From: Methanosarcinales archaeon
GTDB taxonomy: Archaea > Halobacteriota > Syntropharchaeia > Alkanophagales > Methanospirareceae
Direction: 5' to 3'
Length of the DNA: 34,406 nucleotides
Assembly: GCA_025464645.1 (NCBI GenBank)
Contig: JAODGF010000005.1
Span: forward strand, 1-34,406
Below, in pieces: positions 3,562 through 24,978 of this stretch. Position numbers and translations under genes: made by a program. Below the pieces are notes generated by a model. That model had not been told where the DNA came from. It made no database searches and saw nothing but the letters and a program-made list of their open reading frames with translations. The stretch's first letter is position 1. Each line of letters starts with the position of its first letter.

Positions 3562-3564
3562 GGG

Positions 3565-6352: not shown

Positions 6353-6369
6353 GCAGAAGGAGATGTAGC

Positions 6370-9026: not shown

Positions 9027-9049
9027 ATGCCATATTCATGCAGACATGC

Positions 9050-9062
9050 TTCCAATGGAAAC
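9050..9062. promoter_or_regulatory. ORB-like (mini origin-recognition-box) dyad TTCCAATGGAAAC
   Basis: TTCCA-N-TGGAA dyad followed by AC. This matches the conserved core of archaeal Orc1/Cdc6 binding sites. It sits ~100 nt upstream of orc1/cdc6 and is followed by an AT-rich tract. Confidence 0.45.
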
Positions 9063-9158
9063 ATACCCGCAAACAATACTTTTATTATATGTATGGGACA
9101 TTTTATTTTTCATTCACATCGAAATTTTTGAAAAGGTAATGTGGGGTAGAGAAAAAAT

Positions 9159-10376: not shown

Positions 10377-10387
10377 GGGGATGAAAG

Positions 10388-10789
10388 ATGAGTGAGGAAG
10401 AAGAAAAAGGGAAAGGAAAGGAAAAGCCAATATATGTCAAGTTTGAGGCGCCGGAAGATTTGCAAAGGAAGTCGTTAGAGGCTTTAGACATGGCAAGGAC
10501 TACGGGCAGCATAAAGAAGGGGACAAATGAAACCACAAAAATCGTAGAAAGGGGAATGGCAAAGTTAGTGCTGATTGGTGAGGACGTAAATCCTGAGGAG
10601 ATAGTAATGCATCTTCCACCATTATGCGAAGAAAAAAGCACCCCTTACCTGTACGTAAAAACGCAGAAAGATTTAGGGGCTGCTTGTGGTATAAACAAAG
10701 GTTGTGCCTCTGCTGCCATCGTTGACCCCGGAAAAGCAGGAGAAGCGATTGCAGGGATTATAGCGGAATTGGAGAAACTAAAAAGGTAG
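10388..10789 (+). CDS. rpl7ae: Ribosomal protein L7Ae
   Basis: '[45 protein letters not shown]' is the canonical L7Ae core. A short acidic/basic N-terminal extension is present. Confidence 0.9.
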
Positions 10790-10806
10790 CATAAGGAGGA
10801 GCGCGT

Positions 10807-11019
10807 ATGAGCGAAGAGAAGGGAACACCTGCTGAGGTAATAGAAATAGTAGGCAGGACAGGGATGCATGGCGAATCCACGCAGATAAGGTGTAAGGTAC
10901 TGGAAGGGCAGAATAAAGGGAGAATTATAACGAGGAATTGTAGAGGTCCTATAAGAACAGGCGATATCATTGTATTGCTGGAGACAGATAGAGAAGTGAG
11001 GAAATTATTCAGGAGATGA
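10807..11019 (+). CDS. rps28e: Ribosomal protein S28e
   Basis: 70 aa with '[26 protein letters not shown]...[13 protein letters not shown]'. Confidence 0.9.
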
Positions 11020-11025
11020 TTTTAG

Positions 11026-11217
11026 ATGGAGAAGAAATGCTCTTTTTGTGATTCGCCAATAGAGCCGGGTCGAGGGAAGATGTATGTAAAACGCGATGGA
11101 ACAGTTTTTTATTTCTGCAGTTCCAAGTGTGAGCGCAATATGATAAAGCTGAGAAGAAAAAGAAGAAAGGTAAAGTGGACTACGGGTGCAAAAGCGAAAA
11201 AAACGGTGAGCTATTAA
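11026..11217 (+). CDS. rpl24e: Ribosomal protein L24e
   Basis: 63 aa with the zinc-ribbon pattern '[13 protein letters not shown]...[10 protein letters not shown]'. Confidence 0.9.
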
Positions 11218-11231
11218 AGGCTGAAGGAACG

Positions 11232-11651
11232 ATGAAAAAAGAGCGGACTTTTTTGATGATAAAGCCAGAAGGAGTGGAGCGAGGTCTTATAGGGGAAATA
11301 ATAGGGAGATTTGAAAGAAAGGGCTTTAAGATAATAGCGCTGAAGCTTCTAAAGATAAGCAGAGAGGTGGCAGAGAAGCAATATGAGGAACATCGCGGAA
11401 AAGACTTTTTCGAGGGGTTGGTTTCCTACATGTCCTCTGCTCCAACGGTATCAATGGTGATCGAAGGTGAGAATGCAATTGCAGTAGCGAGGGAAATGGC
11501 TGGAGTTACGAATCCAAAACTTGCAAAGCCAGGGACTATAAGAGGTGACTATGGCATAGACGTTCAGCGGAATGTAATACATGCCTCGGATTCTGAAGAA
11601 TCAGCGAAGCGAGAAATATCTATTCATTTTGGGAATCTCGACTCCTTTTAG
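11232..11651 (+). CDS. ndk: Nucleoside diphosphate kinase
   Basis: '[31 protein letters not shown]', 'GTIRGDYG' and 'NVIHASDS'. I chose the ATG at 11232, because the 11175 extension would overlap rpl24e. Confidence 0.9.
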
Positions 11652-11689
11652 TAAACCTTTTCTTGGAATATGTATAATTTTAGATTATT

Positions 11690-13468
11690 ATGAAAAGAAA
11701 ATTAGCTATCCTTTTGATATTAAGTATATCAGTAATACTACTAACACAAATAGCAGGATCGAGCTATTGCTTTGACGGTGTGCCTTATACAGACAAGCTG
11801 GATTTAGTAGCTCATGGCGCTTTAAAAGGTGGTATATATGTAGGTGAGAGTCGTGCACTTGCCTTCCCACCGTGTACAAGAACCTTCGCAGTGCCAGAGG
11901 ATGTCAAAATCAAGTGGGCGAGGCTGTATGTAGGAGTTTGGGGCGGCACGGAAAGATACACCGGTTGGGTTCACACAAAACTTAACGGGCAAGACCTCGG
12001 CAAGACGTTCCTCCTCGGCGAGAGGGATAACAATCCAAATGTTTATTGTAGTGGTCACGGCGTCTATTGGGTCTTTTATGATGTAGCAGATAAAGTATCG
12101 CCGGGGATAAACACCGCCATAGCGAACACCAGCAGGGGTGAACGTGGGAACAAACTCGATGGCAGGATATATAGTATCATCCTTGTAGCAATCTACGAGG
12201 ACGCGAATGCTCCTGAGATTTCATACTGGGTTGCAGATGGGAATGTGAATCTGCATGGTCTGGGCTGGGCAGGAACGGTGCCGACAACAAACGATTTCGC
12301 TTCGGTGAATTTTAAAGGCGCGATTGATCCCGCGAACGTAGAAGGAGCAGAACTTACCGCGGTTTATCTTGCCGGTAATCCCGGAGAACCAGACTACTTA
12401 GAGTTTAACGGGCAGGGCATAGGAGGAAATGACGTGGCAAACTGCGGAGACGGTGAAACTTACGGCATTGACCTCAAGACCTTTGACGTTACAAGGTATG
12501 TACAGGCAGAGAATAGCGCTCTTTTTCTGAGAGGGAAAGACATTAACGGCGATGGTAAAATAGAAGAGGATGACGAGGGCAACCGTGAGGGCGAGCATTA
12601 TCTTCATCCGGTTCTGACTGTTCTTATTGTTCGGCATAAAACCACAGAAAAAGCAATGCCTGACTTCTCCACCGAACTTGCACTGCCCAAGAATCTAACC
12701 GAGGGGGAGAATATGCTTACTACGGTCATAAATAATTATGGTGGATTGTTCGAGGACGATTTCGTATTGAAGGTCAGTGTTGATGGGTCAGAGATTTACT
12801 CGAAGGTCGTTCGTATGGATGCCAGCGGGATTAAGAAATTGGATGTCCCTTGGACCGCTACGCGCGGCGTGCATACCATCAAAGCAGAAGTTGATGCTGA
12901 GAGAGAAGTAGATGAATCGAACGAGGACAATAATGTTTTCACTTTGGAGGCTTATGTCATGCGTAAACCCGATTTGTCAGTAAAAATTCTAACGCCGGTA
13001 GCGGAGGAGAACCCTTCTTCTACTGCTTCTGCCTCCAGTGCAAATAGCAGAATTGGGATACTTGTAATAATGCCGTTGCTCATGTTTATCACGAAACCGG
13101 GGAATAAAAGAAGTCCCTTAGGTATTTTGATGTTTGTAATTCTGAGCGTTGCGTTGATTTTAAGCGGTTGCGTGGACAAACAGACTAAAGAGGAGCAACC
13201 AGGTATGCTCAGCTATTCGATCCCCGTAGAGATAGAAAATAAGGGAGAAGCAACAGCGATAAATTTTGAGTTATCTCTTTATGTGGATGGTGAGAAAAGC
13301 GTGACCAAAAGGATCAGAGAGTTAGAAGGTGGCAAATCCATCGTTGAAAAACTGCCAATTGTGGTGGCTGAAGGGAAACACCATATACGTGCAGTAGTGG
13401 ATGAGAAGAAAGAAGTTGAAGAATTCAGGAGGGATAATAACGAAGATGAGATTACATTCGATTTTTAG
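11690..13468 (+). CDS. Secreted DUF3344-like (type A module) + CARDB protein with an internal TM hairpin/lipobox and a second CARDB-like domain
   Basis: 592 aa with signal peptide 'KLAILLILSISVILLTQIAG'. Type A motifs are 'KWARLYVGVWGGTERYTGWV', 'NPNVYCSGHGVYW', 'DGRIYSIILVAIYE' and 'YWVADG'. The CARDB hallmark is 'VDESNEDNN'. Two hydrophobic helices at aa 455-493 end in 'LILSGC'. Confidence 0.6.
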   Translation: MKRKLAILLILSISVILLTQIAGSSYCFDGVPYTDKLDLVAHGALKGGIYVGESRALAFPPCTRTFAVPEDVKIKWARLYVGVWGGTERYTGWVHTKLNGQDLGKTFLLGERDNNPNVYCSGHGVYWVFYDVADKVSPGINTAIANTSRGERGNKLDGRIYSIILVAIYEDANAPEISYWVADGNVNLHGLGWAGTVPTTNDFASVNFKGAIDPANVEGAELTAVYLAGNPGEPDYLEFNGQGIGGNDVANCGDGETYGIDLKTFDVTRYVQAENSALFLRGKDINGDGKIEEDDEGNREGEHYLHPVLTVLIVRHKTTEKAMPDFSTELALPKNLTEGENMLTTVINNYGGLFEDDFVLKVSVDGSEIYSKVVRMDASGIKKLDVPWTATRGVHTIKAEVDAEREVDESNEDNNVFTLEAYVMRKPDLSVKILTPVAEENPSSTASASSANSRIGILVIMPLLMFITKPGNKRSPLGILMFVILSVALILSGCVDKQTKEEQPGMLSYSIPVEIENKGEATAINFELSLYVDGEKSVTKRIRELEGGKSIVEKLPIVVAEGKHHIRAVVDEKKEVEEFRRDNNEDEITFDF

Positions 13469-14453
13469 TGGTTTAACTCTTGCACTGATTATCTTTTCCA
13501 TTTTTACTTTTCCTTCAGCATCAGGCTCCTACGCGGGTGACAAGCCGCTCAATACGATAGCGCATGAAGAAATCTATGGCGGTATATTTTTTTCATTGGG
13601 AGATAGCAAATACAGTGGTCGGTTGAATTATAACGATACTTACGAGGTCAATTTTGAGCTCGGCGTGCTGAACACAGATAGAGATAAAGGAGTGAAATTA
13701 GCCAGGCTGTATGTCTATTGGGTCTGGAGCCAAAAAGAGAACGTGGGTGTGTACCCCATAATGGAAGTAAGGGCACCGGCAGAAAAAGAAGTTCTGAGTT
13801 CAGTCGTTACATACACGGATACGAAAGGATTTGTGGGTAAGTATGATTACTTCTCCGGCGTCAGTGTTTACAGTTGCAATTTAGATGGCGACTCCTACTC
13901 GGTTACCGTTAAAAACGTGGATGTAAATGGAAGCACTTTTTGCGTGCAGGGAATCGGATTGTTGGTGATATACGAATGTCAGGAGCAGGAGCCAGATCAA
14001 GATTGCCAGCTCATAGAGTACTGGGTCACTGAAGGCTGTGACATGATATATGCAGAGTATGGAATCACGCCTGAGATGGCTACCAGTAAGATTTTCTTTG
14101 ACGGTGAGCTGGAGTTGAAGAGGGTGAAGCGGGCATATTTAATAACCGTGGTTCCTTCAGGAGGATACGTATCAGGCGGAGAGACAGCGCATAATAAGCT
14201 TTACTTCAATGAAAAACGCGGGTGGCTTAGCAATCTCCCGTTCTTGAACCAGTTGCTGAGATTATTGTTCGGCTACGGTGGTGGTGTTTGGAGCGATGTG
14301 TATATTGCGGATAACACGGTCCAGATAGGAGTGGACCAGCGGGATGTTACTGAATATCTGAAGGCAACGAACAATTTTGCCGCAGTTCAAGATAATCATG
14401 ATTACATGATGGTGACAAATGCGGTGCTGGTGGTGGAGAAGGAAGAGAGATGA
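13446..14453 (+). CDS. Secreted single-module DUF3344-like protein (type B module)
   Basis: 335 aa from the ATG at 13446, with signal peptide 'LTLALIIFSIFTFPSASG'. Type B motifs are 'FFSLGDSKYSG', 'ARLYVYWVWS', 'GLLVIYE', 'EYWVTEGCDMIYA', 'LYFNE', 'DVTEYL' and 'DYMMVTNAVLVVE'. It overlaps the upstream gene by 23 nt. Confidence 0.6.
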   Translation: MRLHSIFSGLTLALIIFSIFTFPSASGSYAGDKPLNTIAHEEIYGGIFFSLGDSKYSGRLNYNDTYEVNFELGVLNTDRDKGVKLARLYVYWVWSQKENVGVYPIMEVRAPAEKEVLSSVVTYTDTKGFVGKYDYFSGVSVYSCNLDGDSYSVTVKNVDVNGSTFCVQGIGLLVIYECQEQEPDQDCQLIEYWVTEGCDMIYAEYGITPEMATSKIFFDGELELKRVKRAYLITVVPSGGYVSGGETAHNKLYFNEKRGWLSNLPFLNQLLRLLFGYGGGVWSDVYIADNTVQIGVDQRDVTEYLKATNNFAAVQDNHDYMMVTNAVLVVEKEER

Positions 14454-14484
14454 ATGGGCAATAAAAAATAAAATCACGTAAGAA

Positions 14485-15168
14485 ATGACCGTGGAAACGA
14501 GGGATTTAACAAAATATTACTGGATGGGAAAGGAGAAAGTAGTTGCTTTAGATCGCGTGACCCTGAAGATGGAAGAGGGGGAGTTCATATCTGTGGTGGG
14601 TCCTTCTGGGTCGGGGAAGTCCACGCTTTTAAATATCATCGGATGTCTGGATGCACCAACGAAGGGCGAGGTCTATCTGGCAGGATGGAAAGTAGATTAC
14701 AGAAATAAGCAGTCGTTGGTGAGGTTGCGGCGGAATTTTTTGGGGTTTGTGTTTCAAACGTTCAATTTGATACCGGCATTGAATGCGGTGGAGAACGTGG
14801 AGTATCCAATGTATTTCAATAAGGGCGGGAGGAGCAAAAGCGAGAGAAGAGAGAGTGCGATGAAGTTATTGGCGATGGTTGGTCTTGAAAAGCGTGCCAA
14901 TCATCTTCCTTCTGAACTCTCTGGTGGTGAGCTGCAAAGGATAGCGATAGCAAGAGCGCTTGCCAACGACCCAAAGCTTATACTTGCTGACGAACCTACC
15001 GGGAACCTTGACTCGCGAACAGGGAAAAGCATATTGAGTTTGCTCAAGCGGTTAAACGAAGAAGAAGGGAAAAACATCATCATGGTGACGCACGATCTGG
15101 AATCGGCGAAGAAGATGAGCAGGGTAATTAGGATATTAGACGGGAGGATAATGAGCAATGAAAAATGA
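14485..15168 (+). CDS. ABC transporter ATP-binding protein, MacB/LolD/FtsE-like
   Basis: Walker A 'GPSGSGKST', signature 'LSGGELQRIAIARAL' and Walker B 'ILADEPTGNLD'. At 227 aa it is typical of the COG1136 class. Confidence 0.85.
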   Translation: MTVETRDLTKYYWMGKEKVVALDRVTLKMEEGEFISVVGPSGSGKSTLLNIIGCLDAPTKGEVYLAGWKVDYRNKQSLVRLRRNFLGFVFQTFNLIPALNAVENVEYPMYFNKGGRSKSERRESAMKLLAMVGLEKRANHLPSELSGGELQRIAIARALANDPKLILADEPTGNLDSRTGKSILSLLKRLNEEEGKNIIMVTHDLESAKKMSRVIRILDGRIMSNEK

Positions 15169-15203
15169 AAGTGTAAAAAGAAAAAAAAGGGAAATAATGT
15201 GAT

Positions 15204-16415
15204 ATGAAAGAGTTATTTGCCTTAGCGAGCAGGCAGTTGAGGAGGAAGAAATTGCGCGTGTTTCTTATTGTGCTGGGGATAGCCATAGGAGTTGCCGCGG
15301 TAATTGGCGTCACATCGCTGGGTGAAGGAATTCGCGTTCAGGCGGTTGAGCAAATCAAGGCTTCTCATGATTTAACTACGATAGAGGTTTCAGCAGGTAT
15401 AGAAGCGGGCAGTGTTACGCTGATAACTGATTCAAAACTAAAAGCGATTGAAACGGCTGAACACGTTTTATTCGTGGCTCCATACGTGAGGGACTCGTAT
15501 GTCACGCAAAATAATACGTATCTTGCGGTTATGGGTGTCACCCCTGAGTATAGACAGATTCATGGTAATCTGCAATTGGAGAAAGGAAATTGGTTTAGTG
15601 AAAAAGGGAACCCCGGTGAGATTGTATTAGGCTACGACGTTGCAAAAAGACTGTCAATAATAGAGGATTTAGGATTGGGTGATGAGTTTGCGGTAAAAAT
15701 CAGGTTATACGGCGAGGAAGGGCGTCCAAAGGATAAAACTGCTGTGTTCAAGATCGCGGGCATACTGAAATCATCAGGTGATGAGCATGACAACCAGGTG
15801 TTTGTAGGTATCAAAGAAGCGATGGAGATGGATGAGAAAGATGCTTATGATGGGCTATTTGTAAAGGTAGATGACCCTGCTTTCGCTGCTTCTATAAGGG
15901 ATAGGGTAGAGGGTCTTGGATTGACTGCACATTCTGCGCAGGATGTGATTGATGAAGTAAACAAGCTGATGGTGGCAGTAACACTGGTTTTAGGCTTTTT
16001 TTCCGGTATTTCACTCGTTGTTGGCGCGCTTATGGTGGTGAACACGATGATTATCTCGGTTTACGAGCGAACGAAAGAGATAGGGCTGTCAAAGGCGTTA
16101 GGGGCATCGGATTTTGATATTATGAAGATGTTCCTTGCAGAGTGCGTGATTATAGGCGCCATAGGAGGAATTTTTGGCGATTTGCTGGGGATTGGCTTCT
16201 CTGTGTTGATAGACGTCGTAGGTAAACCTTTCCTGGTAAGTGCGCTTGGAGGCGAGTTAGGTACGGGTTTACAATCGGGCAGCATCACAGCGGTCACACC
16301 GTGGATATTGGCAGCGGGATTCGCGATTTCGCTGGTTCTTTCGATTGTGTCGGGTTTGTATCCCGCGAGAAGAGCGGCGAGGTTGAATCCGCTGGATGCG
16401 TTAAGGCAAATATAG
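15204..16415 (+). CDS. ABC transporter permease, FtsX/MacB-like (4 TM with a large extracytoplasmic domain)
   Basis: 403 aa. TM1 is at aa 18-39, followed by a ~210-aa soluble loop and then a three-TM FtsX-type C-terminal bundle ending 'GLYPARRAARLNPLDALR'. Confidence 0.8.
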   Translation: MKELFALASRQLRRKKLRVFLIVLGIAIGVAAVIGVTSLGEGIRVQAVEQIKASHDLTTIEVSAGIEAGSVTLITDSKLKAIETAEHVLFVAPYVRDSYVTQNNTYLAVMGVTPEYRQIHGNLQLEKGNWFSEKGNPGEIVLGYDVAKRLSIIEDLGLGDEFAVKIRLYGEEGRPKDKTAVFKIAGILKSSGDEHDNQVFVGIKEAMEMDEKDAYDGLFVKVDDPAFAASIRDRVEGLGLTAHSAQDVIDEVNKLMVAVTLVLGFFSGISLVVGALMVVNTMIISVYERTKEIGLSKALGASDFDIMKMFLAECVIIGAIGGIFGDLLGIGFSVLIDVVGKPFLVSALGGELGTGLQSGSITAVTPWILAAGFAISLVLSIVSGLYPARRAARLNPLDALRQI

Positions 16416-16688
16416 TATTTTGAAAAAGCCCTTCGAGATCGGTCGTTCCTTGGAAGACTTTCCAAAAAGGATGTTTCTAACACATGTTTTGAACTCTTAC
16501 CTGTTTTCCTTACCTCAAATCCCCCCGTGGTTTATATATAATTCTCCTTGTGGTAAGAGGCGGTAACTATTTCCATGAAAATCTTTTTATTTACCTCAAC
16601 AATAAAAAATTTATATCTTACTGAAAGATAAAAGGCGAAGATATGAGCGAGGGAAAAGGAAGCAAAAAGCATGAAAGTATAATCCATG

Positions 16689-16717
16689 CCCCTTACGTGG
16701 TTCGAATCCATGAGGGG
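16689..16717 (+). other. tRNA-like T-arm/acceptor minihelix (not a complete tRNA)
   Basis: CCCCT-TA-CGTGG-TTCGAAT-CCATG-AGGGG. This is a canonical GGTTCGAATCC T-loop in a 5-bp stem, stacked on a second 5-bp stem. No D-arm or anticodon arm lies upstream. Confidence 0.3.
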
Positions 16718-16857
16718 AAATGGGGCAAGTTAGGCAGTACCCCAATAGGTGAGAAGAAAAGGGAGGAAAAAAGTTATTTTGGTAAACCTTTTCTCCCACG
16801 CGCCGAGTAGGGGCGCGATATAAATACCAAAACAAATAGGAGGTGAAAAGAAAAAAG

Positions 16858-19800
16858 ATGAATAACAAAAATGGTATAGTATTGCTTGGAATAGTTGCGT
16901 TTTTTGCATTGGTTGCAATGACGGCGACAGCTTCTGCACAGCCAGCAGAGAACGTGGTTTGGCTCGAACCCGAGAATAGTAGTGTTCCAGGATATTGCAA
17001 CACCGTAGAGGTAGAAGTATGGGCTAACATAACTGATCCAGATGGATGTGCAGGTGGCACATTAAATATCACATACGATCCGGGATGTGCTAATGTAACA
17101 GATTGGGAACTCAACACTGTTGCTTGGCCAATGGGAACCTGGAATTCAAGTATCGAAGGCAGAGAGTGGATAACTTTCGAGACCATATTTAACCGAACTG
17201 GCAATGTACTAATTGGAACGCTGGCAATTCATTGCAAAAGTACAAGTTCATGCACAACTCCTTTGATATTCGATGAGGGTAGTTCATTGCTTGCAGAACC
17301 AGATGTAGAATGGAAAAACGGCACATTCACCTGTGAGGTCCCCAAACCCGACCTGAACGTGACTAAGGTTGAGGTGAATTATGATGCACCTGGTCTTGGT
17401 GGAAGAGCAGTCGGACCTGAACCTGGTCCTGGTGTGCACACGCAGTGTAACAACCTCTCTGCGGTGATAGAAAACCGCGGAGTATGCGTTGTATCTCCGT
17501 TCGATGTTACGTTTGAAGTAGATGGAACTACGTTATGTACAGTCCGAGTTCCTGGCTTGCCAGTTGGAGCTACCAAAACAGTGTATTGCAACTGTTCATG
17601 GTACCCCATGGCGGGGGACAGCTTTGCGATAAATGTCACCGTGGATTCTAATAACGAGATTCTTGAGTCCGATGAAACGAATAACACGATGTGGAATAAT
17701 GGAACAGTCGTTTCCAATGGCTACAAAGGCGGTGGTTGGCAGGGTCCTGACAGAAACCTGACAAACGTGCAGTGCCACTCACAAGATACGATCAATCTGA
17801 CCTATTCTGTCGGTGACAGCTATTATGCGAAAGGAAACTGGAGCGGAACTACGGAGTATGTGGTCAACTGGACTGCAAGTGATTTACCTGTTCCCGAGAA
17901 TGCAACCATCGAGAAGGCATGGCTATACGTGTATTATACATGGGACAAAGAGGGGATAATGCCAGACGGGGTTAACCTGAAGTTCAATGGTAACAATATA
18001 CCATTCGCTAGAAACTACTCGGACCGCAAGGGATTCGACGGTTATAACTATCCATACGGAATGCTAGTGTACGACGTGACCATCGCATTTACTGCAACGG
18101 GCAATACAGCAGTACTGACAAAAGCTACTCCTGATACCTACATACCGGTAAAGGGAACGCTTCTTATGGTTGTCTATAAGCATCCGGACGAGCCAGAGCG
18201 GATAATCTGCATTGACGAAGGATATGACATGATAAACGCACAGGCATCTTATGGTGTTACGCCGGAAGAGGCAACTACTTACGCCACATTCGAGTGCTGT
18301 GAGCCGATACCACTGAGCGAGATAGGAAAGGCTACACTGGTAGCTGTTGCGCCTGGTGCCAGTAAGGGGGATGACAAAAACAGGCTCTCATTCAATGGCG
18401 GACTATGGAAAGGAGCATGGTCAGGCTTTGCTGGGAGCACTGAACTCGGCATCGCTGAGACAGATGTACTAAATTATCTCAAAGAGGAAAACAACGTAGC
18501 AAACTTCCAAGACCGGGGCGACTGGATGGAAGCGAGCAACGCGTTCTTGATCTTGGAGAAAGGGATCGCAGAAAAGCCAGACTTAAAGGTGACGGAAATC
18601 GAGCTAAACTGCGGTGGCTACCTATTTGGAAACGAAAGCAATGAAATATGTGCAAAGATTGAGAACAACGGCAGCGGGGATGCAGGTGCATTCAATGTGA
18701 GCTTTGTTATTGACGGTTTCACCAAAGAAGCAAGAATAAACGGGTTGCCGGCAGGTGAAAATATAACGGTGTGCATTAAAGACACAACGAGCAGAAATGC
18801 TGGCGATTCCGTGAATGTTACCGTTACCACAGATTGCAATGGTGAAGTCTCCGAGTCGGATGAGACGAACAATGAATCCGCGATGACTACAACGGTAGTG
18901 AACAACGGCTACAAGGGCAAACGATACACGGGTGGCGATGACATCACTACATGGAAGACGTTTGAACTCCACGGTAACCTGGTGTACTCGCTTGGTGATA
19001 GCTACTATCTGAGTTCATACTCCTATCCTGACTGGACAACCTACACAGTCAATTGGACTGCAAGCGACCTGCCAGTTCCTGATACTGCAACCATCAAAGA
19101 AGCAAGATTGTATGTGCCGTACACATGGGACAAAGGAGGAGTAATGCCTGATGAGGTCAGCCTGACATTCAACGGAGTTGCTCAAACACTTGCTGCACAC
19201 TATTCAGATAGGAAAGGATACGGTGGCTACGATTACCCATACGGGATGCTGGTGTACAACGTAACCGGAGATTTTGATACAAGTGGCAATACCGCAGTTC
19301 TGCTCAACTCACATCCGGGTGGTGACAATGTATCCATACGCGGAATGCTCCTGGTAGTTGTGTATGCAGATGAGTGCGAACTGCCGCAGCGGAAACTATT
19401 TGTCAATGAAGGGTTCGACATGCTCTATGGTGGCGCATCTAAGTGTACAACGCCCGAAGAAGCAACGGCGTATGCACCATTCGGTGCGATGAAGATAGAT
19501 ATATCAAAGGTGGATAGTGCCAAACTGATAACCGTTGCCCCGGGTGCGGGTCCAAATGAAGGCGACCTGCTCTTCAATGGTCGGAGATGGAATGACGTGT
19601 GGAGCTTTACTACCGCTGCACAAATAGGCATTGATGAGCGCGATGTGACTTCCTATCTGCGTCCAACAGATAATGAAGCAGGGTTCCAGAGCAGCGGCGA
19701 CTACATGGAGGCAAGCAATGCCTTTTTGGTTGTGACGGAGAAAATAACAGAAGCAGAATACCAGAATATGATAACTCAGCCGATAGATGTCAGTAAAATC

Positions 19801-20010
19801 CGCTATAAGTTTATAGCCGTGAATGAGGAATGGGCAGCCAAATGGAGCAATGTGCTATTGTATGGACAGAGGGATACGAAGTATTCGATTGAGATACACC
19901 TAAATAAGGCGGGATATGTGACGAGTGTGGCTTTCGAGCGATGGGGCTTCCCAATAGCAGAGATCCCCGTTGAGCTTGCAGCACAGTCCTTAGCTAAGTT
20001 AAATCCATAA
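16858..20010 (+). CDS. Large secreted glycoprotein: cohesin-like domain + 2 x (CARDB + DUF3344-like type B module) + unknown C-terminal domain
   Basis: 1050 aa from the ATG at 16858; the ORF also opens at GTG 16843. Signal peptide is 'IVLLGIVAFFALVAMTATASA'. CARDB hallmarks are 'ILESDETNN' and 'VSESDETNN'. Type B motifs occur twice: 'SVGDSYY', 'WLYVYYTWDK', 'YSDRKG..GY.YPYGMLVY', 'NEG.DM' and 'ASNAFL'. I count 28 N-x-S/T sequons. Confidence 0.65.
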   Translation: MNNKNGIVLLGIVAFFALVAMTATASAQPAENVVWLEPENSSVPGYCNTVEVEVWANITDPDGCAGGTLNITYDPGCANVTDWELNTVAWPMGTWNSSIEGREWITFETIFNRTGNVLIGTLAIHCKSTSSCTTPLIFDEGSSLLAEPDVEWKNGTFTCEVPKPDLNVTKVEVNYDAPGLGGRAVGPEPGPGVHTQCNNLSAVIENRGVCVVSPFDVTFEVDGTTLCTVRVPGLPVGATKTVYCNCSWYPMAGDSFAINVTVDSNNEILESDETNNTMWNNGTVVSNGYKGGGWQGPDRNLTNVQCHSQDTINLTYSVGDSYYAKGNWSGTTEYVVNWTASDLPVPENATIEKAWLYVYYTWDKEGIMPDGVNLKFNGNNIPFARNYSDRKGFDGYNYPYGMLVYDVTIAFTATGNTAVLTKATPDTYIPVKGTLLMVVYKHPDEPERIICIDEGYDMINAQASYGVTPEEATTYATFECCEPIPLSEIGKATLVAVAPGASKGDDKNRLSFNGGLWKGAWSGFAGSTELGIAETDVLNYLKEENNVANFQDRGDWMEASNAFLILEKGIAEKPDLKVTEIELNCGGYLFGNESNEICAKIENNGSGDAGAFNVSFVIDGFTKEARINGLPAGENITVCIKDTTSRNAGDSVNVTVTTDCNGEVSESDETNNESAMTTTVVNNGYKGKRYTGGDDITTWKTFELHGNLVYSLGDSYYLSSYSYPDWTTYTVNWTASDLPVPDTATIKEARLYVPYTWDKGGVMPDEVSLTFNGVAQTLAAHYSDRKGYGGYDYPYGMLVYNVTGDFDTSGNTAVLLNSHPGGDNVSIRGMLLVVVYADECELPQRKLFVNEGFDMLYGGASKCTTPEEATAYAPFGAMKIDISKVDSAKLITVAPGAGPNEGDLLFNGRRWNDVWSFTTAAQIGIDERDVTSYLRPTDNEAGFQSSGDYMEASNAFLVVTEKITEAEYQNMITQPIDVSKIRYKFIAVNEEWAAKWSNVLLYGQRDTKYSIEIHLNKAGYVTSVAFERWGFPIAEIPVELAAQSLAKLNP
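17341..18564 (+). repeat. Internal tandem duplication unit 1 (CARDB + type B module)
   Basis: aa 167-574 align along their length with aa 578-967 of the same protein. Confidence 0.7.
18574..19743 (+). repeat. Internal tandem duplication unit 2 (CARDB + type B module)
   Basis: Shares the same motif order as unit 1, for example 'VNWTASDLPVP' in both. Confidence 0.7.
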
Positions 20011-20035
20011 AACGAAGGAAAAAAGGAACAAGGAT

Positions 20036-20069
20036 AGCTCCTACCAAGGAGCTTTTTATTTTTTTATTT
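20036..20069 (+). terminator. Hairpin + T-tract terminator
   Basis: AGCTCCT-ACCA-AGGAGCT (7-bp stem) followed by TTTTATTTTTTTATTT, 26 nt after the stop at 20010. Confidence 0.55.
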
Positions 20070-20085
20070 ATTAATAACTATCGTG

Positions 20086-20093
20086 TTTATATA
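20086..20093 (+). promoter_or_regulatory. TATA box (TTTATATA)
   Basis: Consensus octamer centred ~29 nt upstream of the ATG at 20119. This is consistent with a leaderless mRNA and argues against the GTG at 20083 as start. Confidence 0.45.
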
Positions 20094-20118
20094 TGATGAG
20101 GGGGTAAAGAGCGGAAAA

Positions 20119-22395
20119 ATGAAAAAAATAAAATATTTGCTGGCAAGCATAAGCATTATTGCGATATTTTACGTCACCATACTGTGCTTGATGGCAGTTC
20201 CGGTGGCAGCTAACTACAACTTCGCGGGATGGCCCGTGGAAACGAGAACGAATGGTACCGTAAACGGCGGTGTGTTCATTGGCTGTGAACCCTGGGCTGG
20301 GACAGAAACGCTTACGGGAAATTTTGACGTGCCTAACGGAACGGTTAAATGGGCACGTTTATACACCGGTATATGGGGAGGAACGGAAGATTACGAAGGT
20401 TGGGTGAACGTAACGTTCAACGGTATTTATAATAGAAATGGGCTTGGACCAATACATTTACGGGGTGTGAATGATGAAAACCCAAATGTGTGGTGCAGCA
20501 CCTATGGAAAATACTGGCTGTGGTATAATGTAACTGATTTAGTCAATGCCGGAGCAATGAATACTGCAACTACCTCAAAGATTAATACAACTGCTGGCGG
20601 TTTTGACGGCAGGGTGTATGGCATTGTTCTGGTTGTGGTTTACGAAGGAGGAGATAACCCAAAGAACGTTCAATACTGGATAAACGATGGAAGTGATGCG
20701 CTTCACTGTGCTACCTGGCCTCCTATTGCACATGACTCAGGGGCAACATACTTCAACGGCACGGTGAACACGGGTATGGTAAGCAATGCAAATCTCACGG
20801 TGGTGCACCTGACAGCTTATGAGCCGGGTTGTGATAGTTGCTTGAAGTTTAATGGTCACCACCTGGACACAAGCATGGTGGACAGCAACACGTTTGAGCT
20901 GAACTCGTGGAATGTGACAAGTTACATAGCATCCTCAGGAAACAATGCCTGGTTCAGTCGAGGCGAAGACTGCTATGTTGGTATTACCAATGCGATATTA
21001 GTATTGGAAAGAGAAGCGGTGGAGCAGCCAGACCTTATGATTACTGCGATTAAACCTTATCATTACGAGTGGTCGGCATACTATGACATACCCAAAGGTG
21101 ACCCGTGGTACAATCTTACGAATTATGTGAATGTTACGGTGAAGAATAATGGGACGGTGGCTGCGGGAAGTTTTGTGGTGAAACTATATGCTGATGAGAA
21201 ACTAATAGGGAATGCAACAGTTGCGGGATTAGCAGCAAATACTACCACGGATGTGAAAATCGAATGGAAGCCTGAAGGTGAAGATGTATTAGGCTGGGTG
21301 GACACCGCAGAAGGCGCTAAAATTGCGCACAACGATACCAGTAAGAATTATATGTTAAGGGCAGTGGTTGACGAAGACAATAAGGTTTCGGAAAGCAACG
21401 AGGAGAACAATAACCTCACAAAAGAGCAGAAAGTGGTTTGGAACGGCTTTGCAAGCGACGAGCCTCTGGAAAATTACGCTCACGGGAAGGTAAAAGGCGG
21501 AATAATCTACACGACTGGGGATGGTCAATACCGCGGTGTTGATTGTGATGGCACTAAATATGGCACTTGTAATAACGTGAGTTACGATTTAGAGATTCCA
21601 GGTAGCGTAAAGCTGGCAAGACTGTATATCTATTATACGTGGGCGCAGCCACCTTATAAAGCACCAAAGATAGGCGTTACGCTGAACACGCCTTCTGATG
21701 CTGTTCAAGAGTTGAACATGGAAAGGAGCTATAACGACATAAAGGGCGATTTCAGCTCGCATAGATTCGTATGGGGTACATACGCATACAATATAACCGA
21801 TTATGTAAATGAAAGTGGAAGGTATGTAGTGAACATAACAAACCTGAATAATGGAAGCGATCCTGAGTTCGCAACGAAGTATGCACTTGCAGCACCAGCT
21901 ATTCTTGTTGTTTATGAGAATGCAAGTGGTGCACCGGAAAGAGAGTACTGGATAAATGAAGGTGCTGACATCCTATTAGGAGGGAGAAGGTGCAAAGGAG
22001 GTTTTCTTTCCTTAGAAGAATGCCTTAATCACGCTACTTTTTCCGGTAGCATAAATCTGAGCGAAGTAGAGAAGGCTACACTTGGCGTTGCTTCTCCATG
22101 GGCGGGGTTTAGCTGGGAGCCCGGAATGACTAACTATCTCTATTTCAATGACTTCGAGTTGGGAAGAAATGTGTACTGTGGATATGACAGTCAGTGCTGC
22201 AAAACAGTAAACGGTATGATGATGAATGTAGGAGCTAACAATGCTCAGGTAGGTGTGAACGTAACCGATGTGACGAACTATCTTAATCCAAGTGATAATG
22301 TAGTTATTCAAGGTGATGATGGCGACTGTATGATGCCGAGTAGTGCCTTTTTGGTGATAAGCAGAAAAAGTAAAGAAAGGGGTATAAGCAGATGA
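20119..22395 (+). CDS. Secreted glycoprotein: DUF3344-like type A module + CARDB + DUF3344-like type B module
   Basis: 758 aa from the ATG at 20119, with signal/TM 'YLLASISIIAIFYVTILCLMAVPVAA'. Type A motifs are 'KWARLYTGIWGGTEDYEGWV', 'NPNVWCSTYGKYW' and 'DGRVYGIVLVVVYE'. CARDB hallmark is 'VSESNEENNN'. Type B motifs are 'YTTGDGQYRG', 'ARLYIYYTW', 'EYWINEGADIL' and 'MMPSSAFLVI'. I count 23 sequons. Confidence 0.65.
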   Translation: MKKIKYLLASISIIAIFYVTILCLMAVPVAANYNFAGWPVETRTNGTVNGGVFIGCEPWAGTETLTGNFDVPNGTVKWARLYTGIWGGTEDYEGWVNVTFNGIYNRNGLGPIHLRGVNDENPNVWCSTYGKYWLWYNVTDLVNAGAMNTATTSKINTTAGGFDGRVYGIVLVVVYEGGDNPKNVQYWINDGSDALHCATWPPIAHDSGATYFNGTVNTGMVSNANLTVVHLTAYEPGCDSCLKFNGHHLDTSMVDSNTFELNSWNVTSYIASSGNNAWFSRGEDCYVGITNAILVLEREAVEQPDLMITAIKPYHYEWSAYYDIPKGDPWYNLTNYVNVTVKNNGTVAAGSFVVKLYADEKLIGNATVAGLAANTTTDVKIEWKPEGEDVLGWVDTAEGAKIAHNDTSKNYMLRAVVDEDNKVSESNEENNNLTKEQKVVWNGFASDEPLENYAHGKVKGGIIYTTGDGQYRGVDCDGTKYGTCNNVSYDLEIPGSVKLARLYIYYTWAQPPYKAPKIGVTLNTPSDAVQELNMERSYNDIKGDFSSHRFVWGTYAYNITDYVNESGRYVVNITNLNNGSDPEFATKYALAAPAILVVYENASGAPEREYWINEGADILLGGRRCKGGFLSLEECLNHATFSGSINLSEVEKATLGVASPWAGFSWEPGMTNYLYFNDFELGRNVYCGYDSQCCKTVNGMMMNVGANNAQVGVNVTDVTNYLNPSDNVVIQGDDGDCMMPSSAFLVISRKSKERGISR

Positions 22396-24425
22396 AAAAA
22401 ACGGTAACGGTAGTCGCAATTGCATTCGCATTAGCATGCTTGTTTTTGCTTTTAAGCTTAAGCATGCTTGCACCTGCTTTAGCGCAGGATGATGTGCCAG
22501 ACCTTGGAATTACTGCGATTAAACCTTATCATTACGAGTGGTATGAGGATTATGACATACCTAAGGGTGAGCCGTGGTTCAACCTTAAGAACTATGTGGA
22601 AGTTACCGTAGTGAACTTCGGGAATAAGACTGCCAAGAGTTTCGTGGTGAGACTGTACGCGGATGGAGAACTAATAGGGAGCAAAACGGTTGATGAATTG
22701 CCAGCATATTCAGAAGATTATCCAGAAGCCAATACCACAGACGTGGAATTCGAGTGGGTGCCTGAAGGAGAAGACCCCTTGAGCTGGATTGATAGCGCAG
22801 AAGGAGCTAAACTCGTTTATACCGATACTAATAGGATTTACACGCTAAAAGCGGTTGTTGACGAGAATATGAATGAACTCACAAAAGACCATGAAGTAGC
22901 TTGGAACGGCTATATGGCGGATGCAGCCTTAGAGAACCTTGTACACGACACGGTAAACGGAGGGATATTATACACGACTGGAGATGGTGAATACAGGAGT
23001 TATGAGAGTGGAGATGATGGTACTAGATATAACACATACTATGACATCAATTATGATTTAGAGATTGCAGAGGGCGCAAAGCTGGCAAGATTGTATATCT
23101 ACTACACATGGTCGAAGTCAAAGGGTGTTAAAGAACCAAAAGCGCCGAAGATAGGTGTTACCCTGAAGACGCCATCAGGTATCACTCATGATCTGAGCAT
23201 GGAAAAGAGCTATAACGATATAAAAGGTAATTTACCCCCGCCTTACCACACGTATAGGTATTATGCCTGGGGGACTTATACATACGATATTACGGATTAT
23301 ATGGAAGAAAGCGGAACTTATGTGGTGAGCGTGACGAACCTGAATGATGGAAGTGACGATGACTTCGCAACTGAGTATTCGTTTGCACCTCCTGCTATTC
23401 TCCTGGTATATGAGGATACAGCAGCGCCGAAAAGAGAATATTGGATAAATGAAGGTGCAGACGTCCTAATGGGAGGGGGGGATGAAAGACCAGAGGGAGG
23501 TTTTCTTGACTTAGAAGATTGCCTTAATCATGCTGAGTTCCCAGGAGAGCATTTAGATTTGGAAGTAGAGGAAGCAGTACTTGGCGTTGTCGCTCCATGG
23601 GCAGATGATTCGGAAGACGATGTCATTTACTTTAATGGCAGAGAACTTGGAAGAGGTTTGTATAAGGGATACCATAATGAATATAGAAGCAGCGAGGATA
23701 TAAAGGGCATTTTAATGAATATTGGTACGGATAAGGCACAAATAGGGATGGCTGCGATTGATGTTAAAAGGTACCTCGAAGATTCTGACAATGAAGTAAT
23801 CCAGGGCGATGACGGGGACAACATGATGCCTGCGAATGCGTTCTTAGTGATAACATATAAAGAAGAAGAGGAAGGGGAAGGCGAAGGAGAAGGAGAAGGA
23901 GAAGTTACGCTAGCTTCTCCAAACATAACTGCCTGGAACCCCTTTGATGCGGTTGTAAACAGCACAAAGGGCGAATCAAGAACGTTCAACATCACCGTAA
24001 ACCAGACAGTAGGTATTAGCTGGCAAATAAATGGTACAGAAGTGCAAACAAATGAAAGCGTGACAGAAGCTGCCTACACGAGCACAAGCGCAGTTCTTGG
24101 AACCTGGAACGTCTCTGTAATGGCAACTAACACATCAACCGGATTATTCGATATGCACACATGGACGTGGCACGTAACACCTGCACTTACTGTAACGCCT
24201 ACACCTGCGAAAGCCATAACTACAACACCTTCACCTACTCCATCTCCAATTTTAATATCAACACCTGCCGTACCAGGTGCTACACCAACTCCCACACCAG
24301 TTCCAACACCTTCTGCCGAGGAAAAGCCAGGAGCAGAAGAAAAAACACCGGGATTTGAACTTGTAATCTCGTTATTTATATTAATTGCAGCAGCGTATCT
24401 AATAAGAAAGCATGAACGGAAATAA
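22392..24425 (+). CDS. PGF-CTERM-anchored protein: CARDB + DUF3344-like type B module + (EG)n linker + Ig/PKD-like domain + Thr/Pro linker
   Basis: 677 aa with a signal peptide. It is a paralogue of aa 316-770 of the upstream protein. The C-terminus is 'TPGFELVISLFILIAAAYLIRKHERK' (PGF tripeptide + TM + basic tail). ATGA start/stop overlap with the upstream gene. Confidence 0.7.
   Translation: MKKTVTVVAIAFALACLFLLLSLSMLAPALAQDDVPDLGITAIKPYHYEWYEDYDIPKGEPWFNLKNYVEVTVVNFGNKTAKSFVVRLYADGELIGSKTVDELPAYSEDYPEANTTDVEFEWVPEGEDPLSWIDSAEGAKLVYTDTNRIYTLKAVVDENMNELTKDHEVAWNGYMADAALENLVHDTVNGGILYTTGDGEYRSYESGDDGTRYNTYYDINYDLEIAEGAKLARLYIYYTWSKSKGVKEPKAPKIGVTLKTPSGITHDLSMEKSYNDIKGNLPPPYHTYRYYAWGTYTYDITDYMEESGTYVVSVTNLNDGSDDDFATEYSFAPPAILLVYEDTAAPKREYWINEGADVLMGGGDERPEGGFLDLEDCLNHAEFPGEHLDLEVEEAVLGVVAPWADDSEDDVIYFNGRELGRGLYKGYHNEYRSSEDIKGILMNIGTDKAQIGMAAIDVKRYLEDSDNEVIQGDDGDNMMPANAFLVITYKEEEEGEGEGEGEGEVTLASPNITAWNPFDAVVNSTKGESRTFNITVNQTVGISWQINGTEVQTNESVTEAAYTSTSAVLGTWNVSVMATNTSTGLFDMHTWTWHVTPALTVTPTPAKAITTTPSPTPSPILISTPAVPGATPTPTPVPTPSAEEKPGAEEKTPGFELVISLFILIAAAYLIRKHERK
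23862..23903 (+). repeat. GAA/GGN hexanucleotide-type microsatellite encoding EEEEGEGEGEGEGE
   Basis: gaagaagaggaaggggaaggcgaaggagaaggagaaggagaa, including three perfect GAAGGA units at 23883..23900. Confidence 0.8.
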
Positions 24426-24978
24426 AGAGAAAATACTGGCGATATTATTAACTGTCGCCGTGATACTTGTAATTTCGTCAAGCTCTGTTGTACTTACATC
24501 TATTACCACTGCTAAAGCTTCTGATACCACTGTAACGCGCATCCTATCCACGGCAAATCCCCGTCCTGGTTCAACATTCGATGTCACGTTGGACATAGAG
24601 GGGCTGCAAATCGGTGGCATCGTAGAGATGATCCCCGACGGTTTTGCATTCCTCCGCACTACACATCCTTCAAATCAAACTTATGTATCAGGGCAGAAGG
24701 TTGTCTTCGTTGTGGTCAATGAAACTTCGATAAAATATGAAGTGCGAGCACCCTCGGAAGGGAGTGGTACTTTCAGTGGAACGTGGTATGATGCCCTTAA
24801 CGAAAAGGAGGGGGATAGTGGTAGTACGAGCGTCTCTGTGAGTATGGCGGGAACACCCTCACCATCTCCCGCAGTACCAGGATTTGAAGTGGTATTTACG
24901 CTTACTGGATTGTTTGTAGTGGCGGTTCTGTTTTTATTTATTAGTAGAAGAGAAAGAGGAGGTGAAAGAGGTGAATAA
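24412..24978 (+). CDS. Small PGF-CTERM-anchored beta-sandwich-like surface protein
   Basis: 188 aa with an N-terminal signal/TM, one ~120-aa domain, a 'GTPSPSPA' linker, then 'VPGFEVVFTLTGLFVVAVLFLFISRRER'. It overlaps the upstream gene by 14 nt. Confidence 0.6.
   Translation: MNGNKEKILAILLTVAVILVISSSSVVLTSITTAKASDTTVTRILSTANPRPGSTFDVTLDIEGLQIGGIVEMIPDGFAFLRTTHPSNQTYVSGQKVVFVVVNETSIKYEVRAPSEGSGTFSGTWYDALNEKEGDSGSTSVSVSMAGTPSPSPAVPGFEVVFTLTGLFVVAVLFLFISRRERGGERGE

Follow-up and report, generated by a model that had tools for sequence, protein, structure and literature searches.

Transporters of the type VII ATP-binding cassette (ABC) class, such as MacAB, LolCDE, FtsEX and HrtBA, are encoded together with dedicated extracytoplasmic proteins, as FtsEX is with EnvC or PcsB and LolCDE with LolA. 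The class regulates extracytoplasmic hydrolases; FtsEX, for example, activates EnvC- or PcsB-dependent wall hydrolases. To our knowledge, no archaeal type VII ABC transporter that has an extracytoplasmic partner of its own has been described. Fibrillar adhesins form another well-described group, in which a signal peptide, immunoglobulin (Ig)-like stalk repeats (CARDB, PKD, Big), an adhesive domain and an anchor are combined in one protein. A further point of reference is the set of cellular and viral double jelly-roll proteins gathered by Krupovic et al., which includes PNGase F and in which DUF3344 goes unmentioned (PMC8812541). Here, we describe a locus that can be compared with all of these. 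The window, by which we mean the whole 34,406-nucleotide stretch of DNA analyzed (contig JAODGF010000005.1, positions 1 to 34,406 of the forward strand, assembly GCA_025464645.1), comes from a Methanosarcinales archaeon of the Methanospirareceae. Between positions 11690 and 24425, it encodes seven copies of one module, the Pfam family DUF3344 (PF11824), carried by five secreted proteins (O1 to O5), and the genes of an ABC ATPase and permease lie among them.

All seven modules match DUF3344, the five proteins scoring 149 to 450 bits against a gathering threshold of 27.2 bits, and the isolated modules span the family model end to end (positions 1-275; best E=2.3e-77, over positions 2-275). DUF3344 was the only Pfam match of the isolated modules at E<=10, without even a weak match to PNGase F, carbohydrate-binding module (CBM) or malectin families, and an NCBIfam scan of O1 to O5 gave nothing relevant. 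A family profile run against the sequences of the Protein Data Bank (PDB) returned only CARDB and dockerin chains, and thus no relative of the module with a solved structure. Of 179 homologs found with two of the copies, B3 and A2, 176 carry a precomputed PF11824 match, and several are named “DUF3344 domain-containing protein.” The original prediction, made from the letters of the DNA and their translations, had called the module uncharacterized; this is right as to its function, but the family itself was already catalogued in Pfam. The searchable literature that mentions DUF3344 assigns it neither a function nor a fold: two DUF3344 open reading frames of Methanoperedens plasmids have been called likely surface proteins (PMC9674854), and a machine-learning screen placed DUF3344, as cluster 23, among fibrillar-adhesin-like proteins of “ambiguous function” (PMC9210967). 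New here are the fold assignment, the internal duplication, the two subfamilies (A and B) and the MacB-type cassette; relative to the original prediction, the duplication, the CARDB spacers and the tie between the ABC-transporter genes and the module copies between which they sit are additions. Taken as a whole, we judge it somewhat probable that DUF3344 binds rather than catalyzes and that O1 and O2 work physically with the transporter. Binding over catalysis, the class of ligand and the physical coupling are the parts of this reading that we infer. The genes from 11690 to 27297 all lie on the plus strand, and those on which the argument turns are as follows.

11690..13468, plus strand: O1, DUF3344 (E=3e-43) and CARDB (E=3e-26); signal peptide, module A1 (11771-12658), CARDB (about 12710-12940), hydrophobic segments (13049-13171), CARDB (13208-13444).
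13446..14453, plus strand: O2, DUF3344 (E=1e-56); short, secreted, its only module being B1 (13518-14450).
14485..15168, plus strand: ABC ATPase of MacB/LolD/FtsE type (ABC_tran, E=6e-32, 111.4 bits).
15204..16415, plus strand: permease with MacB periplasmic core (MacB_PCD, E=2e-29) and FtsX C-terminal domain (FtsX, E=1e-20).
16858..20010, plus strand: O3, DUF3344 in two stretches (E=6e-135) and CARDB (E=3e-33); signal peptide, N-terminal domain (about 16930-17370), CARDB (about 17449-17691), module B2 (17734-18567), CARDB (18574-18879), module B3 (18910-19752), 85-residue C-terminal domain (19753-20007).
20119..22395, plus strand: O4, DUF3344 in two stretches (E=2e-90) and CARDB (E=1e-18); signal peptide, module A2 (20212-21024), CARDB (21091-21423), module B4 (21436-22380).
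22392..24425, plus strand: O5, DUF3344 (E=4e-44) and CARDB (E=5e-6); signal peptide, CARDB (22563-22766), module B5 (22893-23867), (EG)n linker, Ig-like/Thr-Pro-rich stalk, PGF-CTERM (24345-24410).

O1, O2 and the two transporter genes form one operon, a cassette of four genes. O1 and O2 overlap by 23 nucleotides, gaps of 31 and 35 nucleotides separate O2 from the ATPase gene and the ATPase gene from the permease gene, and 427 nucleotides with TATA-like boxes (TTTATATA) lie between permease and O3, which suggests that O3 has its own promoter region. The starts at 13446, 16858 and 20119, preferred in the original prediction over those of the longest open reading frames, are preceded by the Shine-Dalgarno-like sequences AGGAGG, GGAGGTG and GAGGGGG, respectively, and O2 orthologs begin at the Met equivalent to the 13446 start.

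A hidden Markov model (HMM) of the module, searched against all six frames of the window, recovered exactly the seven full-length copies that had been predicted (domain E values of 3e-88 to 6e-111) and no eighth copy with an E value better than 1.6. The modules are about 270 to 320 residues long and lie where they had been placed, type A being the module of O1 and the N-terminal one of O4, while type B supplies the module of O2, both modules of O3, the C-terminal one of O4 and that of O5. Pairwise identity is 36% between the two A copies, 27 to 57% among the B copies and 21 to 28% between A and B. Are A and B nevertheless diverged versions of one fold, as the original prediction proposed? By blastp, A matched B with E=4.5e-5 and 8.9e-7, and A-only and B-only family alignments that shared no sequence were matched by hhalign with a probability of 99.2% (E=1.3e-19 over 210 columns). 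Both sub-types fall under one Pfam model, and their two predicted structures have a like strand pattern and like structural neighbors. A and B are homologous, and they form two conserved sub-types. Two outcomes had been named beforehand as speaking against the proposal, namely, that A and B are unrelated or that the module belongs to a characterized family; neither was found, A and B being significantly related and DUF3344 being a family without known function.

The motifs read off by eye fared differently. The four motifs described for type A are exact in both A copies. Those described for type B hold as a consensus, being present in two to five of the five B copies, but the literal string LLVVYE occurs in none of them; the strings actually at that site are LLVIYE, LLMVVYK, LLVVVYA, ILVVYE and ILLVYE. 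The supposedly invariant NEGxD, put forward in the original prediction as a possible metal or glycan site, is not invariant. It reads NEGFD or NEGAD in B3 to B5, TEGCD in B1, DEGYD in B2, NDGSD in A2 and ADGNV in A1, so that only the Gly and the acidic residue before it are constant. In B3 numbering, the residues invariant in all seven copies are G29, A65, L67, Y68, W73, D100, Y116, Y152, P159, G168, F191, A204, L206, F222, N223, V246, Y249, N255, D264 and L273. Insertions and deletions are concentrated in a small number of loops. The largest of them follows the second FNG, and the insertions that B1, B4 and B5 have there differ from one another. Across 135 nonredundant domains of the family, most conserved positions are hydrophobic or aromatic, determine the fold and occur in both halves of the module, and polar conservation is confined to Asn, Asp and Thr: the FNG of each half, the Asp of Y-x-D-x-K-G, the N-[ED]-G-x-D at the start of the second half (about 80% conserved across the family and degenerate in A1) and an Asn near the C terminus. 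No His, Cys or Ser is conserved family-wide in these domains, in agreement with the earlier remark that the module has no recognizable catalytic signature.

AlphaFold2 models, built from input alignments of 44 and 51 sequences, were obtained for B3 (predicted local distance difference test, 94.1; predicted template-modeling score, 0.93) and A2 (95.1 and 0.92, respectively). Both models are all-beta, with about eight strands before and about eight after residue ~157. When the N-terminal half of the module was compared with the C-terminal half, hhalign matched the two with a probability of 88% (E=2.8e-6), pairing ARLY...FNG...YNVT...NTA...LVVVY with AKLI...FNG...RDVT...NEA...FLVVTE. The two halves are therefore homologous, and the module goes back to a single jelly roll that was duplicated internally, which explains why the order ARLY/FNG/DVT/N.A/LVV.E is repeated within it. 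As modeled, DUF3344 is a rigid pair of fused homologous eight-stranded jelly-roll beta-sandwiches, the product of an ancient internal duplication.

The Foldseek comparison suggested in the original prediction was run with both models, and the two sub-types share essentially the same PDB neighbors. Best for both are PNGase F and its relatives (1pgs, 3pms, 9vla and 4r4z; probability, 0.99 to 1.0; E=1.4e-6 and 4.5e-6). Single CBM or beta-sandwich domains of beta-galactosidase, rhamnosidase, GH86, GH98, Xyn30D and BcsB are further neighbors; the type A query also found tandem malectin ectodomains. At lower rank come double jelly-roll capsid proteins for both queries and DUF2961/GH172 for the type B query. 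The PDB matches have global template-modeling (TM) scores of only 0.25 to 0.29 and root-mean-square deviations (rmsd) of 11 to 14 Å. In BFVD, mycobacteriophage minor tail proteins are the best global matches (E=5e-9 to 1e-5; TM score, 0.33 to 0.48). Given the low TM scores and an rmsd above 11 Å, the two-roll composition is shared with PNGase F and the capsid proteins, but the geometry between the rolls apparently is not.

How far, then, do these likenesses go? PNGase F, like DUF3344, packs two consecutive eight-stranded jelly rolls into one all-beta unit of about 300 residues (about 325 aligned columns). However, the orientation of the rolls in PNGase F (clan CL0612) probably differs from that in DUF3344, the TM score given above being below 0.5; PNGase F has no sequence similarity to DUF3344 and is not repeated along CARDB stalks. 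The capsid proteins PM2 P2 and PRD1 P3, as well as 4kq7 and 8ah3, reach TM scores to DUF3344 of at most 0.26. The CBM modules of glycoside hydrolases (GHs) and of BcsB (the Xyn30D CBM35 [4qaw], GH86 [5ta0 and 4aw7], beta-galactosidase [3w5g], rhamnosidase [3w5n and 6i60] and BcsB [6yg8]) and the ANXUR malectins share with DUF3344 their jelly-roll topology, an extracellular site and a modular arrangement with Ig-like spacers; the CBM match is at the level of the fold only (E=1e-5 to 1e-3), and it is of a single CBM, in contrast to the fixed pair of rolls in DUF3344. The minor tail proteins of actinobacteriophages (BFVD entries G1DU01, A5YJY9 and A0A6N0A3S7), which are presumed to bind the host surface, superpose on DUF3344 with an rmsd of 7 to 9 Å over about 270 columns; these are predicted structures with about 11% sequence identity to DUF3344.

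The family is small. A profile of the seven modules, run against 1.84 billion representative proteins, retrieved 1,089 clusters (at 50% identity) with E<=1e-3, 545 of them with E<=1e-30. In a genome scan with a narrow, B3-like alignment, which biases the list of taxa toward B3-like copies, nearly all matches were to Halobacteriota and Methanobacteriota, with one in Thermoplasmata and two in records labeled bacterial. Among these genomes are anaerobic methanotrophic archaea (ANME-1, ANME-2c and ANME-3), Methanoperedens, Argoarchaeum, Methanolinea, Methanoculleus, Methanogenium, Methanobacterium and Methanobrevibacter; the retrieved relatives are almost confined to methanogenic and methanotrophic archaea, a narrow phyletic range. 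The DNA of the window matches contigs of the ANME-1/Alkanophagales metagenome-assembled genome QMVO01 (B64_G16, whose isolate name suggests Guaymas) at about 84% identity and several JGI metagenome contigs at 80 to 87%, which marks its source as a methanotroph of the ANME-1 type.

The architectures are those of adhesin-like giant proteins. A single polypeptide can carry up to seven DUF3344 copies and reach 3,457 residues, and the repeating unit is nearly always CARDB-DUF3344, with CARDB between and beside the modules. DUF3344 is always joined to stalk or adhesin domains, and its partners include CARDB, PKD, Big, PEGA, LTD, TSP3, dockerin, cohesin, PGF-CTERM, DUF2341, NosD/beta-helix, disaggregatase repeats, beta-propellers and Glucodextran_B. 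The fusions to NosD/beta-helix or disaggregatase repeats, found in some proteins, are like those of CBMs. No catalytic domain fused to DUF3344 was recognized among the retrieved homologs and loci. The occurrence of many copies on spacers, the lack of conserved residues of a catalytic type, the CBM and tail-protein neighbors and the beta-helix fusions together argue for binding over catalysis. Tandem arrays of two to eight DUF3344 genes are the rule (loci are cited here by our own L numbers). L093 (ERZ23498665 scaffold_1025) has eight consecutive DUF3344 genes, some with disaggregatase repeats, a beta-propeller or Glucodextran_B, and in the ANME-2c loci L004 and L005, the DUF3344 genes are flanked on one side by the gene of a Zn-phospholipase C with a dockerin and on the other by that of a surface protein with Peptidase_C1, lectin and NosD parts.

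One arrangement recurs with particular regularity. A type-A protein of about 600 residues, a short type-B protein of about 340 to 350 residues, a LolD/MacB-type ATPase and a MacB_PCD/FtsX permease are encoded in this order, as O1, O2 and the two transporter genes are in the window, in ANME-1 Methanospirareceae (L012/L091) and in two Methanolinea genomes (L031 and L035). In a Methanoperedens locus (L042), ATPase and permease genes are followed by six DUF3344 genes. The test was also made in reverse, with 32 metagenomic loci chosen by similarity of the permease alone (69 to 92% identity and, in one case, 44%). The short type-B gene lies directly upstream of the ATPase gene in 25 of these 32 loci, and it is preceded by a type-A gene in 9 of the 13 that reach far enough, as it is in L091; the locus with 44% permease identity retains the full arrangement. 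Based on the recurrence of the cassette and on this reverse test, the presence of ABC genes amid the module copies is not incidental.

By domain content, the transporter falls in the type VII (MacB/LolCDE/FtsEX) class of ABC systems. Its ATPase is encoded separately and is of LolD/MacB type, and the permease has MacB_PCD between its first and second transmembrane segments and an FtsX C-terminal domain, scoring 103.9 bits for MacB_PCD and 74.1 bits for FtsX; these scores and the 111.4 bits of the ATPase for ABC_tran are all above the cut-offs. At the level of NCBIfam equivalogs, the ATPase fits best to LolD (4e-71; 239 bits versus a cut-off of 307.75) and MacB (8e-68; 229 versus 966), and the permease matches MacB and LolCE models at about 1e-30 (106.6 versus 362 bits for lolCE) and FtsX models with 28 to 54 bits versus 225 to 255. 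All of these scores are below the cut-offs, and we accordingly reject an assignment to LolCDE, MacB or FtsEX proper. The known type VII systems and the cassette are alike in that a transporter is encoded with dedicated extracytoplasmic proteins, but the known partners are coiled-coil, LytM, membrane-fusion or LolA proteins, whereas those of the cassette are DUF3344 jelly-roll proteins. The host of the cassette is also different, being archaeal and having neither outer membrane nor murein.

What might join O1 and O2 to such a transporter? O2 orthologs are strongly conserved, and the second jelly roll of O2 holds a hydrophobic, amphipathic insertion (RGWLSNLPFLNQLLRLLFGYGGGVW; window 14200-14300, residues ~268 to 295 counted from a start at 13401) of the pattern W-L..LP-FL.QLL.LLF-G.GGG-W. 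It is kept in an alignment of 17 orthologs, from ANME-1 to Methanolinea, and is absent from the other six modules of the window, and we regard it as a candidate contact to the permease or the membrane. In O1, residues 454 to 494 (13049-13171) comprise two hydrophobic segments with a basic loop, KPGNKRS, between them, the second segment ending in a lipobox-like LSGC. The pair sits between the two CARDB domains, the counterpart in L091 is equally long (599 residues), and the segments may form a hairpin in the membrane or serve as an internal signal of the lipoprotein type.

O3, O4 and O5 look different. All five proteins begin with signal-like segments, and O3 to O5 are rich in N-X-S/T sequons, with 28 observed versus 11.5 expected in O3 (z=5.3), 23 versus 9.1 in O4 (z=5.1) and 10 versus 4.6 in O5 (z=2.7); by the same count, sequons are not enriched in O1 and O2. 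Sequon counts and synteny together suggest two classes of paralogs: O3 to O5 as exposed, heavily glycosylated outer proteins and O1 and O2 as a membrane-proximal pair dedicated to the ABC system. B5 is followed in O5 (23868-24344) by an (E/G)n linker (EEEEGEGEGEGEGE), then by an Ig-like stretch with many sequons and finally by a stalk rich in Thr, Pro and Ser that runs into a PGF-CTERM signal (E=4e-4; 20.7 bits versus a cut-off of 18.8), a predicted layout that is that of an archaeosortase-anchored glycoprotein stalk. With export signal, stalk and anchor, O5 has the layout of a fibrillar-adhesin-like protein, and O3 and O4 combine a signal peptide with CARDB-DUF3344 units; homologs carry dockerin, PKD and Big domains. 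The difference from classical fibrillar adhesins is that in these, the adhesive domain caps a long stalk, whereas the putatively adhesive DUF3344 alternates with single stalk domains. The N-terminal ~150 residues of O3 recur at the N termini of B-type proteins in at least 10 loci (e.g., L006, L007, L014, L022, L033, L046, L064 and L069), and its 85-residue C-terminal domain recurs in L006 and L062. A cohesin identity for that N-terminal domain, guessed from the sequence pattern and from the dockerins and cohesins of homologs, found no support in Pfam (E<=1) or PDB sequence searches, and the domain stays unassigned.

Downstream of O5, three further genes complete the run of plus-strand genes.

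24412-24978, plus strand: p188, a small beta protein of 188 residues, PGF-CTERM anchored.
24962-26053, plus strand: p363, a weakly CARDB-like protein of 363 residues with a C-terminal hydrophobic anchor.
26050-27297, plus strand: class-III substrate-binding protein (Pfam Peripla_BP_2).

The overlaps of 4 nucleotides between O4 and O5, 14 between O5 and p188, 17 between p188 and p363 and 4 between p363 and the Peripla_BP_2 gene indicate that these five genes are translationally coupled. The order DUF3344-DUF3344-small-medium-Peripla_BP_2 recurs in L001 to L003. L091 has the same order with an intervening reverse-strand gene, and radical SAM, FecCD permease and ATPase genes follow there, in contrast to the window, which has no permease or ATPase gene after the Peripla_BP_2 gene. 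A pair of p188 and Peripla_BP_2 genes is also found near DUF3344 genes in L012, L029, L035 and L043 (ANME-1, Methanolinea and Methanogenium). The five-gene unit occurs in about 5 of 52 genome loci and in none of the permease-selected metagenomic loci with 8 kb of downstream sequence, so its association is looser than that of the cassette; p188, p363 and the substrate-binding protein are probably part of the system, more loosely so than the cassette itself.

In total, we propose a model in which DUF3344 would be a noncatalytic binding module, a tandem CBM- or lectin-like domain. Its targets would be glycans of the cell's own envelope or matrix or of partner bacteria, and the display of many copies would provide avidity. 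The Ig-like CARDB domains would act as spacers, O5 would be held at the surface by its PGF-CTERM and O1 by its membrane hairpin, and homologs would use dockerins instead; O3 to O5 would be exposed on the outside and heavily N-glycosylated. In this model, O1, as a membrane-anchored type-A protein, and O2, as a small soluble type-B protein, would serve as the extracytoplasmic partners of the cassette transporter, and we speculate that ATP-driven movements of the periplasmic core would be coupled to release, assembly or remodeling of surface material bound by DUF3344. If the coupling is real, this would be the first such archaeal type VII system known to us; if the genes are merely located together, what is left is a routine annotation of adhesin-like proteins. 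The setting gives the question some weight, given that a large part of the global methane flux is governed by ANME and the methanogens related to them and that the building of their envelopes and their attachment to partners are poorly understood. DUF3344 is now a defined object, namely, a duplicated surface jelly-roll unit with two sub-types and a cassette kept across orders, and this makes it experimentally approachable.

Several observations weigh against this model. The top PDB neighbor, PNGase F, is an enzyme, and D100, N166-E167-G168-D170, N223 and N255 may make up a PNGase F-like catalytic or Ca2+ site at the interface of the two domains; with global TM scores this weak, transferring a function from any neighbor is unsafe. 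An adjacent DUF3344 gene is absent in 6 to 7 of the 32 permease-selected loci, within 10 kb no such transporter accompanies many of the DUF3344 arrays (e.g., those of the ANME-2c loci L004/L005 and of L093), and the putative coupling of O1 and O2 to the transporter is an argument from synteny. Could DUF3344, then, be a PNGase F-like glycoamidase or glycanase, with an active site between the rolls that trims envelope N-glycans or polysaccharide, and with O1 and O2 switched on by a MacB/FtsEX-type ABC system? We think this unlikely, but it deserves a hearing: PNGase F and PNGase Bb head the PDB matches of both sub-types, the acidic and amide conservation is asymmetric (D100 in the first roll and N-[ED]-G-x-D at the start of the second), the cassette contains a transporter of the very class that regulates hydrolases, and fusions to beta-helix, NosD or disaggregatase repeats exist within the family. 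Yet the structural match to PNGase F is poor (TM score, only 0.25 to 0.28; rmsd, 11.6 Å), no PNGase F Pfam family is matched at E<=10, the acidic motif is degenerate in A1 (ADGNV), and up to seven copies per chain with CARDB spacers are common among binding modules and rare among catalytic domains. A bolder version combines the two ideas. DUF3344 would be a further cellular family of PNGase F-like two-jelly-roll proteins, essentially restricted to methane-metabolizing archaea. O1 and O2 would do the extracytoplasmic work of a type VII “mechanotransmission” ABC system in archaea, a counterpart of FtsEX-hydrolase or LolCDE. The glycosylated envelope, be it sheath, S-layer or matrix, would be remodeled, released or assembled at the expense of cytoplasmic ATP, and a catalytic site for glycan processing might lie between the two rolls; we consider this version quite improbable.

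It is also conceivable, if slightly more doubtful still, that the DUF3344 proteins are structural parts of the envelope (S-layer, sheath accessory or plug) in sheathed archaea such as ANME-1 and Methanolinea and that the ABC cassette serves their assembly. The proteins are exported, anchored, glycosylated and present as multiple paralogs, and the cassette is found in Methanolinea too, but the sheath is made of amyloid-like SH proteins and the Methanospirillum S-layer of DUF3821 proteins, which are other families. DUF1608 is the Methanosarcina S-layer domain; none of the five proteins has a Pfam match to the SH core, DUF3821 or DUF1608, and an identity of O1 to O5 as archaeal sheath or S-layer proteins was therefore rejected. 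QMVO01 is listed among sheath-bearing archaea, and the proteins that assemble sheath and plugs are unidentified in that work; against this, DUF3344 also occurs in Methanoperedens, ANME-2c, Methanoculleus and Methanobacterium, which are not listed there as sheath-bearing (PMC11576556). Highly variable architectures and copy numbers likewise fit adhesins and not lattice proteins. Alternatively, do the surface proteins capture a metal chelate or tetrapyrrole (a siderophore, corrinoid, heme or F430-type ligand) and relay it to the class-III binding protein and an importer, much as the NEAT-domain proteins of the Gram-positive Isd system relay their ligand to IsdE? The translationally coupled unit from O4 to Peripla_BP_2, its recurrence in L001 to L003 and L091 (where FecCD permease and ATPase genes come next), the pairing of p188 and Peripla_BP_2 near DUF3344 genes in Methanolinea and Methanogenium, weak matches of the substrate-binding protein to FhuD, IsdE and BtuF, the position of the Methanoperedens plasmid DUF3344 open reading frames between NikR and CbiMNQO genes (PMC9674854) and the near-restriction of the family to archaea that contain methyl-coenzyme M reductase all point this way. 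We nonetheless regard such a relay as very unlikely: the association is much looser than that of the MacB-type cassette, no ligand pattern of His, Cys, Met or Tyr is conserved, and substrate-binding proteins of ANME are generally displayed at the surface (PMC9012536), so that their neighborhood with DUF3344 genes may be incidental. Least of all can the module be a domesticated or provirus-encoded capsid-type double jelly roll. PM2 P2, PRD1 P3, the iridovirus major capsid protein and DUF2961/GH172 are among the Foldseek matches, and PNGase F is itself classed as a double jelly roll by Krupovic et al. (PMC8812541). However, TM scores to capsid proteins are only 0.17 to 0.26; the proteins bear signal peptides, anchors and CARDB spacers; their neighbors are housekeeping and transporter genes; and tblastn searches of 50,697 phage genomes and of a plasmid collection came back empty, on which ground a viral or plasmid origin was rejected. 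This idea is effectively refuted.

The remainder of the window holds several features apart from the module genes; Rfam and tRNA scans of the window gave no matches. An AglB/STT3 oligosaccharyltransferase gene (27304-30693, minus strand) converges on the surface-protein cluster. At 1129 residues, its product is unusually long; it has additional transmembrane segments at the N terminus and an insert rich in Lys and Glu. A link between AglB and the DUF3344 genes was considered and rejected, since just 1 of the 52 genome loci has AglB in the neighborhood of DUF3344 genes, and the adjacency is probably incidental. Upstream of O1, an Orc1/Cdc6 gene (9159-10376) is followed directly by genes for L7Ae and nucleoside-diphosphate kinase, all three assigned from their translations. 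No clear origin repeats of the ORB type were seen in the DNA flanking Orc1/Cdc6 (window 8800-11700); short T-rich direct repeats (TTTTATTTC...) occur in the intergenic DNA near it, at 8835-9116. At the 5' end of the window, a glycogen-type cluster on the plus strand (2305-7838) comprises genes for two glycosyltransferases (GTs) of family GT4, one GH57 protein and one starch-synthase-like GT4/GT5 protein.

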